DNA of 64,000 bases from Eledone cirrhosa (lineage: Eukaryota), in the NCBI GenBank assembly GCA_964016885.1, contig OZ024754.1, forward strand, positions 27,404,001-27,468,000, read 5' to 3'. The number at the start of each line of letters is the position of its first letter. Positions within the stretch are counted from its first letter, which is position 1. This document shows, piece by piece, positions 42,254-59,369 of the stretch. Below the pieces are notes generated by a model. That model saw nothing but the letters and a program-made list of their open reading frames with translations, did no database searches and was not told the DNA's origin. The translations under genes and the position numbers were made by a program.

Positions 42254-43465
42254 AAGAAGTTTATGAAACGGAAATGCGGGTATAAAGAATTTATTAGGTA
42301 ACAATTGTTTCTATAGTGTATGGGTTACCTATACCTCGCTATTTGAATAATATAAAAATATTATCATAAACCGAAGGTGCACTGTAAGCATACACACCAT
42401 GTCGTCAGACCTTTGTATTGGAATGATATGAAAATATTTTATACACTAGATAAAAGAGAAAGAAGGAGGTATGAAGAGAAGGGGAAGAGGGAAGTGAGTA
42501 AGGGGGAGGGAGTCCTAGGATTTAAGACTGTCAGACTAGTAGAGATTGTAAGGAGAGAATGTTTTGGCAGCAGTTAGCTTAATGAGGCGTGTTAGGGTTG
42601 GTGGGGGAAGTAAATTCTTCTAGTGGTGTTGTTTGGACAAAATTTAGTTAAAGGGGTCAAAGTGGTACAGAGTTACAGACAAGTTATTGGGGCTATTATA
42701 GTAGCAGGTTGTTTCTAAAGGGGTCCAGAAAACAGTGTTTAGTACTATTATTATAGAAAGCCATTTTAAATGCATATAATGTTACCTTTTTACACCACCG
42801 TTTGCAAATTTCTGTTTTATATGTTTATACAGAGGATATGGCTTTCTATAATAATAGTACTAAACACTGTTTTCTGGACCCCTTTAGAAACAACCTGCTA
42901 CTATAATAGCCCCAATAACTTGTCTGTAACTCTGTACCACTTTGACCCCTTTAACTAAATTTTGTCCAAACAACACCACTAGAAGAATTTACTTCCCCCA
43001 CCAACCCTAACACGCCTCATTAAGCTAACTGCTGCCAAAACATTCTCTCCTTACAATCTCTACTAGTCTGACAGTCTTGAATCCTAGGACTCCCTCCCCC
43101 TTACTCACTTCCCTCTTCCCCTTCTCTTCATACCTCCTTCTTTCTCTTTTATCTAGTGTATAAAATATTTTCATATCATTCCAATACAAAGGTCTGACGA
43201 CATGGTGTGTATGCTTACAGTGTACCTTCGGTTTATGATAATCTTTTTATATTATTCAAATAGCGAGGTATAGGTAACCCATACACTATAGAAACAATTG
43301 TTACCTAATAAATTCTTTATACCCGCATTTCCGTTTCATAAACTTCTTCTCCATATTTTCTCCGGATTTTAAAACACACTTTATTATACGTTGAGCAATC
43401 TCCGACGTCGGTTGACTCCATCCAATGCAACTACTTAGTAACATTGGAATACAAATTTACTAATT
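42254..43465 (+). mobile_element. Large fold-back PLE-type insertion (510-bp arms)
   Basis: 42254-42764 is inverted relative to 42838-43348, almost identical, with a ~115-nt unpaired 3' extension to (TA)n. Confidence 0.85.
43190..43306 (+). ncRNA. Hammerhead with ~90-nt stem II (mirror copy 42296-42412)
   Basis: aggt-CTGACGA-catggtgtgtatg...catacactata-GAAA-caattg-TT^-acct. Confidence 0.8.
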
Positions 43466-43663
43466 ATATATATATATATTTAATACAATAACAGAGATAG
43501 CTTAAAGCTAAACTCCGACTGGTAACCATCTCACTCAACAAACATTAGGTTATATGTTAGTATAAACCCAATTTAAGTGTTTGGGGTGCTAACTATATGT
43601 ATTTTGTGGAAAGCCAGTTGTATTATTTTATGAGATATAATTAAAGTTAAAATATATCTCTTT

Positions 43664-43788
43664 TTCCAAACAATTGTTTCATTATAAGTTTTCTACAAAT
43701 TGGGAGAATGTTTCCAGTTTATGTAGAAGCCTAACATATATTCATGTAAGAATATATTTAGGTGGGCACTTATAAATCTTCAGTGGAA
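43664..43788 (-). ncRNA. Hammerhead with ~95-nt stem II
   Basis: Minus strand: ttcca-CTGAAGA-tttataagt...acttataat-GAAA-caattg-TT^-tggaa. Confidence 0.8.
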
Positions 43789-44069
43789 GCCCATTAAACT
43801 TTGATATAAGAAAAAAATTCTTACCGCAGTCAAAAATGGTGTTTTCGAATGACCGCCAAATTTGAAATTCTAGCAGTCTTTTGACTGAGGAAGTTTCATA
43901 GCGTCACGAAGCGGGAAAGGGAGACAACCATGATTCACGAGAAAAGAAAATAATATTCACGTGGGTTAATTAGTTTTTTCAAAAACATTATCAATCCAAC
44001 GTGTTAAGAACTCAATTGAAATTAAAAAAATAAATGTATGCGTGTATTAATTACACACGCATATAGATA

Positions 44070-57170: not shown

Positions 57171-59175
57171 GTGGACTGACATGATGATGTGGACTGAAAT
57201 GATGATGTGGACTGACATGATGACGTGGACTGACATCCTAAAGCCAAGCAGACGCACTGCCAACAACTTCCAGGCGTCTAACAATGGCATACCACCCTTG
57301 TATGGGCTCCGCAAAGACCACAAGACAGTCGACGACCCGACAACATATTCAAGTTCAACGAGAAGATCTACACCCAAAATGAGGGGGCAGCCATTGGCGT
57401 CAGCATAGCTGGTGATGTTGCCAACCTTTTCATGGTATGGTGGGAAAGGAGACTTAAAATCTCCTTAATGAGAGCTCCATAGACCTCATCATGTACTCTC
57501 GTTACGTAGACGATATCAATATAGTTATAAGAACATCCCCACTAGAGAGCACTAACAAGTTTGATTTAGAACGTAGCACAATGGAAAGCATCCAGCAGAT
57601 AGCTAATTCCATATACCAGAGTATAACTGTAACTATCGATTTCCCTTCCAAACACCCTAACAATAGACTACCTGTATTAGACACGGAACTCTGGATTAAC
57701 ACTATAGACGAGAGAGCCCAAATTCTCCACTCACACTATGCTAAACCCATGGCCTCCAAATACCTGATACTCAAAAACTCAGCAATGTCCAGTAGTGCTA
57801 AGTTTAATATTCTGATCGCAGATTTGGTACGAGTGATGAAGGATGTGTCCCGCATGTGCGACCCAACAGAAATAGAAAGACACATCCAACACTTCATCAA
57901 CCGCATGCAGTTCTCTGGCTACGACCAAAGAGACAGAGTCAGAGTATACGAAGGAGCCATGGAGAAGTATAAGACCCTCATAGAACTGGACATGAAAGGA
58001 ATTTGCCCATTATACAGGAGCAAATCATGGAATAGCTTAGATAGGGCTAGACATAAGATAGGGAAAGCCACCTCATGGTACGACATCAAGAGATACCAGA
58101 GTGTCATGTTTGTGGACGCTACCCCTGGAGGGAAATTAGCTAACCAGTGTAGAAAGGCGCTGAGAAAGACCCACTTAAAGATTAAGGTGGTAGAAAAGCC
58201 AGGAACCACCATAAAATCCCTGATCAGCAAAACCTACCCTTTTAAGAAAACCCACTGTACTAATAGGAAATGTATCATATGTAAGGTAAACCCCCGGATA
58301 AACTGTAAAACTAGAAACGTAGTCTATAGCATAAGATGTACAGACGGTATTTGCAGAAACATGACAACAACATACATAGGCGAGACAGCTCGTAGCATAG
58401 ATGAAAGGATAGACCAACACTGGGGGAAGTAAAAGGACGAAAAAACGGGTCAGTACTATACGAACATGCCTGACAACAACACGACGGTAACATAGACAAC
58501 ATAGAAATTAGAATAATATCTAAACATAGAAATAACCCAGCAGATAGGCAAATCAGAGAGGCCAGTGAAATAGAACATAGAAGGCCAAGACTAATCAGAA
58601 AGAATTAATGGAATAACAACAACACCCAAACAAACAACACTGACCTAAGAGAAGTATAAATAAATAAATAAATAGATAAATAAATAAATAAATACATACA
58701 CAAGCACAATAACAACAAACACATATAAACACACACTAGTAAAGATAGAATACATTAACCGATACACAGTCACCCAATCACGAACACACATCAAACAAAA
58801 CACTATACACACACGCAAACGCATACTCAAAGAAGACAAAATAAAATAAACAAACAAACAAATAAATAAATAAATATATAGACAGACTAAATAAAAATGG
58901 CGTAGACATACAATGTAATGGGAGGAAACAATAGCACCACTGACGATGTTGCAGATGTGCAACGAAAGAACTTTGATAAACTATATATATGCGTTTATGT
59001 CTATATTGTATCTGTATTATTTTTGACCGTCGGTCAGTCAATGGCAACATTGAGGACCGAATAAATTAGATTACCGATATAAAAGACACAGAAGTGAAAA
59101 GCGAAAACCAACCAAACAGTGAGTGTGTTCTGTTATTAATTCTGGCAATATAACACAAATATGACCCTCCCCAAA
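57171..59175 (+). mobile_element. Inverted partner copy of the same PLE, internally deleted
   Basis: Near-identical reverse complement of 54307-56116 plus a short upstream piece. ORF 57491-58432 carries YVDD through YIGETAR. Ends at atgaccctccccaa followed by (TA)n. Confidence 0.9.
58931..58984 (+). ncRNA. Hammerhead-like motif in PLE 3' UTR (mirror copy 54494-54547, minus strand)
   Basis: CTGACGA-t-gttgca(gatg)tgcaac-GAAA-g(aa)c-TT. Stem I is weak. Confidence 0.6.
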
Positions 59176-59248
59176 TATATATATATATATATATATATAT
59201 ATATATATATATAAAGATTTGAATGGATACAGTTTAGTTGAAAGGAAT

Positions 59249-59369
59249 TTATTGACACGTGTTTCTATAACAGTTACATAACCTGAAAACAGCTGCTATC
59301 TACAAAGTTTTAGTTATGCAGACATTCAATATTTCAATGTTATTATTTACTGTCATTTCATCAGAATAA
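59249..59369 (-). ncRNA. Hammerhead with ~90-nt stem II
   Basis: Minus strand: ttatt-CTGATGA-aatgacagt...actgttata-GAAA-cacgtg-TC^-aataa. Confidence 0.82.

Follow-up and report, generated by a model that had tools for sequence, protein, structure and literature searches.

The 64-kb window (the whole stretch of 64,000 nucleotides from Eledone cirrhosa contig OZ024754.1 that was analysed) contains four hammerhead motifs with a giant stem II, one each of families a to d, together with two variant-core motifs (families e and h) and a short canonical hammerhead (Table 1). A strict scan of the window returned 11 motifs, five of them with inserts of at least 60 nt, and found none in any of 200 block-wise dinucleotide shuffles; a chance origin is excluded by these shuffles and by reversed-pattern controls on the genome. 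The scan recovered all four of the perfect cores that a preliminary description had listed, each in the type I order CUGANGA, GAAA, NUH, with a stem I of 4-9 bp, a basal stem II helix and the 6-nt palindrome reported for stem III. The inserts, described as partly self-complementary and 90-105 nt long, measured 90-104 nt and folded as closed stems (z = -2.2, -5.6, -5.3 and -3.6 for a, b, c and d), the one in family b forming a three-way junction whose loop is reversed, with UAA facing AYU. They lie well outside the short helix II (4-8 bp, small loop) of hammerheads in the pseudo-LTRs of Penelope-like elements (PLEs), and the expectation that standard models would miss the expanded form was borne out, as no Rfam hammerhead model matched any of the four motifs at E<=10. 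By core and helices the giant-arm motifs are type I hammerheads, with self-cleavage predicted from the sequence.

Table 1. Hammerhead motifs and associated features (positions within the window; cuts are predicted)
Feature	Position	Strand	Core	Stem II	Stem III; site; stem I	Remarks
Variant-core hammerhead, family h	14104..14193	+	UUGAUAA	59 nt, without loops	8-nt palindrome CTACGTAG	
Short canonical hammerhead (contrast)	26096..26140	+		14 nt, G-C base		RF00163, 31.7 bits
Hammerhead, family a, inverted second copy	42296..42412	-				Fifth motif; typical inverted PLE end
Hammerhead, family a, type I	43190..43306	+	CTGACGA 43194-43200; GAAA 43291-43294	43201-43290 (90 nt)	CAATTG; GUU; 4 bp	Cut after 43302
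Double internal-loop module, family a	43219..43273	+		Loop A 43219-43221 opposite 43271-43273; loop B 43231-43233 opposite 43261-43263		Sequence-anchored parse
Hammerhead, family b, type I	43664..43788	-	CTGAAGA	96 nt	CAATTG; GUU; 5 bp	
C-terminal endonuclease fragment	44078..44449	+				Hydra-type element owning the 45064 motif
Variant-core hammerhead, family e	45064..45165	+	UUGAAAA (U3-A8)	75 nt, both loops	CGGUCG	
Hammerhead, family c, type I	53682..53822	+	CTGAAGA 53691-53697	53698-53801 (104 nt), one A-G-U/U-A-G loop	CGATCG; GUA; 9 bp	Cut after 53813
Hammerhead, family d, type I	59249..59369	-	CTGATGA 59364-59358	59357-59266 (92 nt), both loops	CACGTG; GUC; 5 bp	Cut after 59254

The motifs at 43190, 53682 and 59249 and the variant at 45064 lie in pseudo-LTRs of Hydra-type PLEs. 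In families a, c and d the hammerheads lie in direct repeats, 5' of an RT-EN ORF and again 3' of it, in the sense of the ORF, which upholds the earlier assignment of the motifs to PLEs. The family a parent has a Hydra-type ORF at loci L157/L158, the family c hammerhead is present in both pseudo-LTRs of a full element (L031) and that of family d surrounds an ORF at L155; the parentage of family e was read from its upstream endonuclease (EN). The flanked ORFs carry RW[KR], DKT and CxCX5C (RWR/RWK with DKT, and likewise CxCX5C, in families a, c, d and f), their EN is C-terminal, and the elements are inserted into (TA)n. By these motifs, the C-terminal EN and the insertion site, the parents are classed as Hydra-type PLEs; the tree was built with database relatives. 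A Pfam scan of five ORF proteins returned one weak RVT_1 and one faint D5_N. A Naiad parent is ruled out by the C-terminal EN with DKT, and the Neptune-like ORF at 54307-59173, between motifs c and d, belongs to a separate inverted element, c and d having Hydra-type parents of their own. AATAAA follows the hammerhead in families a, d and f, and element copies stop at one of two places, 40-60 or 150-200 nt downstream and ~110-140 nt apart.

Families b and h are of a different kind. Family b (43664) is a non-coding unit of ~990 nt in partial tandems, with periods of 743 and 989-993 nt, and family h (14104) is a non-coding tandem unit of 593 nt, with periods of 593-595 nt. Like metazoan non-LTR retrozymes (PMC7229834; bioRxiv 10.64898/2026.07.22.740005), these are head-to-tail units with one type I hammerhead each; they differ in their size (593 and 743-993 nt, which puts them at the upper limit of the reported lengths or beyond it), in forming short partial tandems instead of long arrays and in the giant stem II. 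No parent ORF was found around the units of either family, and an ORF 713 nt downstream of one family b locus was rejected as it lies past a (TA)n junction, in another insertion. The non-coding units are likely to be non-autonomous derivatives of Hydra-type PLEs.

The four motifs had been called unrelated, which does not hold: homology links a, d and the 45064 variant, and three of the motifs share loops and a clade. In a quick version of the endonuclease tree (143 columns), the seven two-loop families group as a single clade (SH-aLRT 99) with the one-loop family c as its sister (96), and the short-stem families fall outside this group. One such short hammerhead, at 26096-26140, lies ~1.4 kb past the endonuclease of a Hydra-type element (21879-24769). 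Short-stem Hydra-type families have also spread in the genome, so the arm is not required by the whole clade. Both variant cores (45064 and 14104) are U3-A8 covariants present family-wide. These motifs and their inserts of 75 and 59 nt (z = -2.5 and -4.5) were found as first described, with two corrections: the stem III of 45064 (CGGTCG) is a palindrome only if a G.U pair is allowed, and the palindrome of 14104 is 8 nt long.

In the 3.0-Gb genome, 31,582 core matches with 70-130 nt spacers were found against 1,524 for reversed-pattern controls, and the two-loop pattern gave 4,696 matches against none; the count for 40-69 nt spacers (21,294) is too high, because a LINE RT coding sequence also fits the pattern. 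Genomic copies were compared among the matches listed. In each of four families, all of the 30 best copies have kept the long insert, which excludes a copy-specific secondary insertion. The expanded stem II (75-126 nt) is a family-level inherited trait, and the recurring architecture suspected at the outset extends to tens of thousands of genomic copies. Two-loop matches were also obtained from metagenomes (84) and viruses (three), but none of these 87 passed a test for stem I and basal stem II, compared with 13 of 30 loci from the animal's own genome; such collections are mostly microbial and have little bearing on animals.

Across families that are ~50% identical (median insert identity 49%), the long arm has retained either one or two internal loops of 3x3, with A-N-U facing Y-A-G. 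These could be parsed in 21 of 22 representatives, with a score of at least 13.5 in 18 of 21 as against 0.16% of shuffled inserts, and a model trained on the other families recovers the motifs of a, e, d and b from the window (50.5 bits for a, 36.7 for e). Several loop letters are invariant in a sequence-only alignment of 18 copies, and the unpaired letters of the loops have changed less than the paired helices that flank them. The family c-type arm, which is built differently, holds the same loop in 46 of the 53 distinct copies among the matches listed; the reversed UAA of family b is present in 22 of 22, again among the matches listed. An intron in the arm was considered and rejected: inspection revealed no conserved splice signals, and a GT after loop A occurs in a, d and f only.

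Structure-preserving change in the helices of the arm is supported across families. Pairing beside the loops exceeded that of partner swaps (96 vs 73.9 for the A-B helix, 50 vs 39.7 for the closing of loop A), as did that of the basal stem II (113 vs 85), and in the sequence-only alignment 50 cells were altered on both sides as against 18. Compensatory branch events numbered 10.3 vs 0.6 in the stem I/basal stem II helix test, and same-branch events in the arm 7.5 vs 0.7 among 20 representatives, a set picked with the loop-bearing pattern and whose loop conservation is not counted as evidence. Pairs within loop B showed no excess over partner swaps (30 vs 28.5), pairs with a change on both sides were not significantly enriched in the sequence-only alignment (11 vs 8.6, 60/500), and parsimony changes, with decayed copies included, broke pairs about as often as they kept them (28.7 vs 30.9 and 18.0 vs 18.7). 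The structure of the arm and its anchors were chosen after the sequences were seen. The covariation proposed as a check of stem II was thus found as compensatory change across families but not in a tree-aware, per-pair analysis of 42 close copies, where no pair reached E<1 and none of the top 20 was a predicted pair; known stem I pairs were also absent from that result, which indicates low power.

One explanation for these data is that the arm is a tolerated extension that grew once in an ancestor, in which selection keeps only the pairing, so as to leave the core undisturbed, and common ancestry accounts for the loop letters. The continuum of stem II lengths from 11 to 126 nt among the matches listed, the 10-nt slippage duplications that lengthen the c-type apex, a 66-nt copy that has lost loop B and the negative per-pair test would all fit this model. 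We nevertheless consider it unlikely, as the loop letters outlast the paired helices despite the ~50% insert identity and a 30-60% difference between the endonucleases of loop-bearing families, and as the same loop is found in the differently built c arm and reversed in b.

The base of stem II (10.1-11.1), usually G10.1-C11.1, is mismatched in all four motifs (C.A, U.U, C.A and A.A in a, b, c and d); it is paired in 3 of 21 representatives and mismatched in 18, so Watson-Crick pairing is not the rule here. It could be argued from this, from the U3-A8 core of two families and from the finding for a Poseidon PLE that insertion in vitro did not require hammerhead catalysis, that the motifs no longer cut and that what remains of core and arm serves purely as a folded signal in cis to the protein of the element. 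This is improbable given that the catalytic positions were perfect in 30 of the 30 best copies per family, a choice biased to young copies, and in many divergent families, and that U.U at the stem II base is listed for other hammerheads of the Hydra clade and has also been described in one from axolotl. Stem III has an energy of +2.4 kcal/mol as a hairpin and of -6.4 to -10.3 kcal/mol as a duplex. With two pairs and four loop bases it is unstable alone and forms an 8-bp duplex between two copies. Since stem III is stable only as this duplex, cleavage would take a pair of hammerheads, as in tandem PLE transcripts. Both the palindrome in stem III and cleavage as a dimer have already been described for PLE hammerheads (PMC4209133, PMC6765202). 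The suggestion that the insert itself is a dimerisation domain, through loop-loop kissing, is not supported. The apical loop of family c (AAUAUU) is a palindrome, but those of a, b, d, e and h are not, relatives of c have other, unconserved apical loops, and stem III already provides a palindromic dimer interface; we regard kissing as extremely unlikely.

We propose instead that these are pseudo-LTR type I hammerheads of Hydra-type PLEs and their likely derivatives, whose inherited, looped arm of 75-125 nt probably binds the element's own RT-EN, a reading to which we give about an even chance. An RT-binding role of the insert is plausible. A Poseidon PLE has a hammerhead that does not cleave unless the protein of the element is supplied (PMC11167929), which we count in favour of an RT-EN-binding arm. 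Cleavage would be by a dimer of two hammerheads joined through the stem III duplex. The arm would fold independently and present its A-N-U/Y-A-G loops to the RT-EN, binding of which would offset the weak stem II base and so switch cleavage on, and the bound enzyme would be kept near sites 40-60 or 150-200 nt downstream, the predicted RT starts. We note that family h is without loops and that family b folds differently, which runs counter to an RT-EN-binding arm. Another possibility is that the loops are an RNA-RNA tertiary docking module that stands in for the usual loop 2/stem I contact by docking onto either stem I or the partner hammerhead, for faster, protein-free cleavage. A contact between helices I and II is required in natural hammerheads (PMC4209133), the apical loop here lies too far from the core to provide it, and the letters of the loops barely vary from family to family; however, no stem I extension or bulge that could act as a receptor is conserved in 18 flanks, which led us to reject an extended stem I as docking partner, and the distance of loop A from the core (~15-26 nt on the 5' side) differs between families, making docking rather unlikely. 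RT-EN binding may be taken further, to a natural protein-switched hammerhead in which a conserved tandem-loop domain in stem II is the recognition site of the telomerase-related RT, gating cleavage and positioning the RT, with non-coding derivatives mobilised through the same loop; this is a tentative and somewhat doubtful extension.

In the mammalian Clec2 discontinuous hammerhead the insertion interrupts stem I and is not known to have a conserved fold. That hammerhead resembles ours in having a large insertion and a cut just upstream of a poly(A) signal but, unlike ours, sits in a host mRNA 3' UTR (PMC6765202). The nearest relatives are the Hydra-clade PLE hammerheads (Craig et al. 2021, PMC8557442, File S2), which are also type I, at the 3' end/pseudo-LTR of elements with a DKT and CxCX5C RT-EN and (TA)n insertion, with a short stem I, near-palindromic stem III and frequent stem II base mismatch (U.U). 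Their tabulated stem II has 3-7 bp and a 3-10 nt loop, including that of octopus Hydra-1_oBim, compared with 75-126 nt and internal loops here; the longest arms in that table, of spike-moss PLE-X, have loops of ~30 nt. Minimal PLE hammerheads (Cervera and de la Pena 2014, PMC4209133) share the pseudo-LTR, palindromic helix III, predicted dimer cleavage, U3-A8 core variant and many divergent families per genome, but their helix II has 6-8 bp at most and a highly conserved G10.1-C11.1, in place of a mismatch and a large domain. The Anolis Poseidon PAc hammerhead (Frangieh et al. 2024, PMC11167929) likewise lies near internal RT starts with two preferred copy ends. It is of a different clade, its tail is 30-40 bp as against the ~110-140 nt between copy ends here, and the accessible text reports no large stem II domain; protein assistance was shown there and is inferred here.

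What appears to be new is the giant stem II with its conserved loops, and not PLE hammerheads, palindromic stem III or dimer cleavage; no description of a giant structured stem II was found in the published PLE hammerhead literature. Descriptor- and Rfam-based surveys miss a very abundant hammerhead class. Naiad hammerhead cores, for example, had been searched with 7-17 nt spacers, and claims of hammerhead-less PLE lineages such as Naiads may merit a long-spacer search. The loop module bears on how PLEs recognize their own RNA and what their hammerheads do. The literature on protein-assisted PLE hammerheads, in its available part, defines no binding site, and a conserved, mutable loop module on the ribozyme makes PLE RNA recognition directly testable. 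If true, the protein-switched hammerhead would mark the first time that an RNA recognition element has been defined for a Penelope-like RT.

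Hammerheads with a giant stem II are real and abundant in this genome, and are under structural selection at the family level. Scanning the window for CUGANGA followed by GAAA, a palindrome and UH, with stem I closing the motif, re-found the four motifs of the preliminary description at their exact positions (families a to d, starting at 43190, 43664, 53682 and 59249), with inserts of 90, 96, 104 and 92 nt, and an extra inverted copy of the family a hammerhead. There were 11 strict motifs, five with inserts of at least 60 nt, against none in each of 200 shuffles, and on folding the inserts closed into stems better than shuffles did (z -2.2 to -5.6). 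As had been anticipated, standard hammerhead models miss the expanded motifs: Rfam found no hammerhead at a, b, c or d in short stretches at E<=10, and among the 150 of 185 whole-window matches listed the sole hammerhead was a short one. Further families in the window have a stem II of 11-36 nt and palindromes TGCGCA, TATATA or CAATTG, several with a C.C mismatch near the stem base.

The inserts might have been copy-specific, but the long insert and perfect core were present in 30/30 best loci for each of families a-d, these being top matches biased to young copies. First-look candidates in the 3.0-Gb genome, which are not copy numbers, came to 1,100 (a), 2,457 (b), 1,194 (c), 330 (d), and 1,530 and 749 for the variant families e and h (starting at 45064 and 14104). 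Exact patterns with 70-130 nt spacers gave 31,582 matches (13,761 + 4,944 + 12,877), some of them chance or a short motif plus a far-off core, versus 1,524 (80 + 464 + 980) for reversed-pattern controls; with 10-39 nt spacers there were 13,335 versus 2,896. Stem II spanned 11 to 126 nt across fetched loci. One trap for pattern surveys is a LINE RT coding stretch (L206 and similar loci) that fits the core pattern with a 54-nt spacer and accounts for many matches among those listed. An abundant class with a 58-63 nt stem II has its own loop, AGU opposite GAG/AAG; a search for its parent element found none.

Clustering placed 150 distinct motifs in 29 clusters, of which 10 were chosen by eye, with family e added. 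The arms carry a recurrent 3x3 internal loop, with 5'-A-N-U-3' facing 5'-Y-A-G-3'; each arm has two of them (loops A and B) with a 6-9 bp helix between, and median identity of the representatives' inserts is 49%. A parser that scored letters and ignored pairing located loops A and B in all of the 22 representatives but one, a 66-nt copy that has lost loop B; of the 21, 18 scored at least 13.5, versus 0.16% of shuffled inserts. On its 5' side loop A reads ATT (16), AAT (4) or AGT (1); the 3' side is TAG in 17 for loop A, and TAG in 12 or CAG in 8 for loop B. Genome-wide, the two-loop pattern matched 4,696 times and its controls never. When a covariance model was built solely from families that the window lacks, its highest-ranking matches were family a, that family's inverted copy, e, d and b, at 50.5 to 26.8 bits; the loops were aligned in a, e and d, and family c was not among its 11 matches. 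Three weak matches lie in a short inverted/direct repeat beside a Hydra element end. Relatives of c have a single such loop (46 of 53 distinct), family b has it reversed (UAA in 22/22, AYU or AAU in 20/22) and h lacks it. The apex is unconstrained, c relatives extending it through 10-nt duplications.

Pairing exceeded partner swaps beside loop B (96 versus 73.9, 0/1000), outside loop A (50 versus 39.7, 1/1000) and in the basal stem (113 versus 85, 0/1000), with no excess inside loop B (30 versus 28.5). In a sequence-only alignment of 18 copies, scored on a structure drawn from those same sequences, 87.9% of cells were paired versus 79.5 when shuffled, and 50 cells were altered on both sides versus 18; pairs with both-side change were not in excess (11 versus 8.6, 60/500). 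Stem II covariation, which the preliminary description proposed to test, was seen across families: same-branch compensatory events on the tree numbered 7.5 versus 0.7 in the loop helices and 10.3 versus 0.6 in the basal stem for 20 representatives (one parse, seemingly mis-registered, was left out). Among 42 close copies there were 2.7 versus 0.2 (66/2000), and a per-pair G-test with a tree-shuffled null gave no pair at E<1. Pair-breaking changes were about as common as pair-keeping ones. We consider it unlikely that the arm is simply a tolerated extension.

Absent from the preliminary description is a mismatch at the base of stem II (10.1-11.1) in all four motifs. It is mostly A.A (8) or U.U (6) in 21 representatives (A4 columns 15 and 96); because it pairs more rarely than swapped partners predict (3 versus 9.8), this suggests a selected non-canonical pair.

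The motifs had been called unrelated, which was not borne out. A quick tree built on 76 EN domains (143 columns) groups all seven two-loop families in a single clade (SH-aLRT 99) whose sister is c (96); the 14-nt and 12-nt short-stem families lie outside it and a 98-nt family is unplaced. The two-loop arm was therefore probably inherited from a single expansion, and the motifs would thus not be independent inventions.

At locus L031 two family c hammerheads, 4.9 kb apart in direct orientation, surround a 747-aa RT-EN frame; those of a, d and f, a further family, likewise surround RT-EN ORFs or border them in inverted form, and that of e lies downstream of an EN fragment. The ORF motifs (RW[KR], DKT, [LI]YRDD, CxCX5C) and (TA)n copy ends match the Hydra clade of Penelope-like elements (PLEs) as defined by Craig et al. 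2021 (PMC8557442). Families b (period 743 or 989-993 nt) and h (593-595 nt) are non-coding, retrozyme-like units for which no parent ORF was found. Family h is very young, many copies being 100% identical; its 593-nt tandem unit combines a U3-A8 core with an 8-nt palindrome. In a Hydra-type element of the window, present in two copies 87% identical, a short canonical hammerhead lies about 1.4 kb downstream of the EN. A different PLE, inverted and rearranged, has a DKS motif, a CX-type linker and a GIY-YIG-like end and is presumably Neptune-like; in a fuller copy the frame runs to 1,014 aa and its N-terminus is rich in asparagine.

Coordinates of features in the window, with loci elsewhere in the genome (L numbers)
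Feature	Position	Basis or remark
Inverted family a hammerhead	42412-42296	pattern scan
Short hammerhead	26096-26140	Rfam
Short-stem hammerhead families	5939-6162, 6766-6829, 27765-27897, 32031-32197, 49367-49505	pattern scan
Weak covariance-model matches	26329-26379, 26476-26526, 26628-26678	~21 bits
AATAAA	43307-43312 (+); 59253-59248 (-)	
Two-end pattern, example	43302-43465	
EN fragment upstream of e	44078-44449	
Family h units	14069-14265, 13720-13916; L453, L454	
58-63 nt stem II class	L151, L212-L214, L218, L223, L226	
Hydra-type element	21879-24769	
Its two copies	21837-26186, 60873-63247	
Its pseudo-LTR repeat	21837-21904 / 26119-26186	
Different PLE	54307-59173	
Fuller copy of different PLE	L448:471-3515	

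Computed energies for stem III were +2.4 kcal/mol for the hairpin and -6.4 to -10.3 for a duplex of two molecules, which fits the dimer model already published for PLE hammerheads (PMC4209133, PMC6765202). The insert itself had been suggested as a dimerisation domain; no conserved kissing loop was seen in it, and kissing dimerisation is now very improbable. Copies of a, c, d, e and f end at two favoured distances past the cut site, ~40-60 and 150-200 nt, hence an optional tail of ~110-140 nt, versus 30-40 bp in print. This is reminiscent of Anolis PAc, with two internal RT start sites and a hammerhead that cleaves only with the element's protein (PMC11167929). AATAAA lies 0-7 nt past the predicted cut site in a (33/33), d (40/40) and f (13/13) and is absent there in b, c, e and h; cleavage would detach this poly(A)-like signal from the RNA upstream of it. 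That the motif is instead a catalytically dead signal seems improbable.

Conserved non-canonical internal loops are typical contacts for protein or tertiary structure. We propose, at roughly even odds, that protein docks on the loops and, once bound, would prop up a ribozyme weakened at 10.1-11.1. Another possibility, to which we give perhaps one chance in five, is that they dock RNA to RNA, but no stem I extension conserved across families was seen.

Craig File S2 (PMC8557442) gives Hydra-clade hammerheads a loop 2 of 3-10 nt, often with U.U at the stem base, and includes an octopus family with short stem II, whereas arms here reach 126 nt; Cervera 2014 (PMC4209133) reports the U3-A8 core and a helix II of no more than 7-8 bp. 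Full-text literature searches, with passages of PMC7229834, PMC10085705 and bioRxiv 10.64898/2026.07.22.740005 also consulted, gave no description of so large a stem II or of the loop module, though longer variants could be present in supplementary data to Cervera 2014 or to that preprint. The PLE association, palindrome and dimer are already known, which lowers the surprise; the giant stem II of the earlier proposal and the loops seen here have no described precedent in that literature. A conserved loop module on a possibly protein-gated ribozyme offers a concrete handle on how the PLE RT recognises its RNA.
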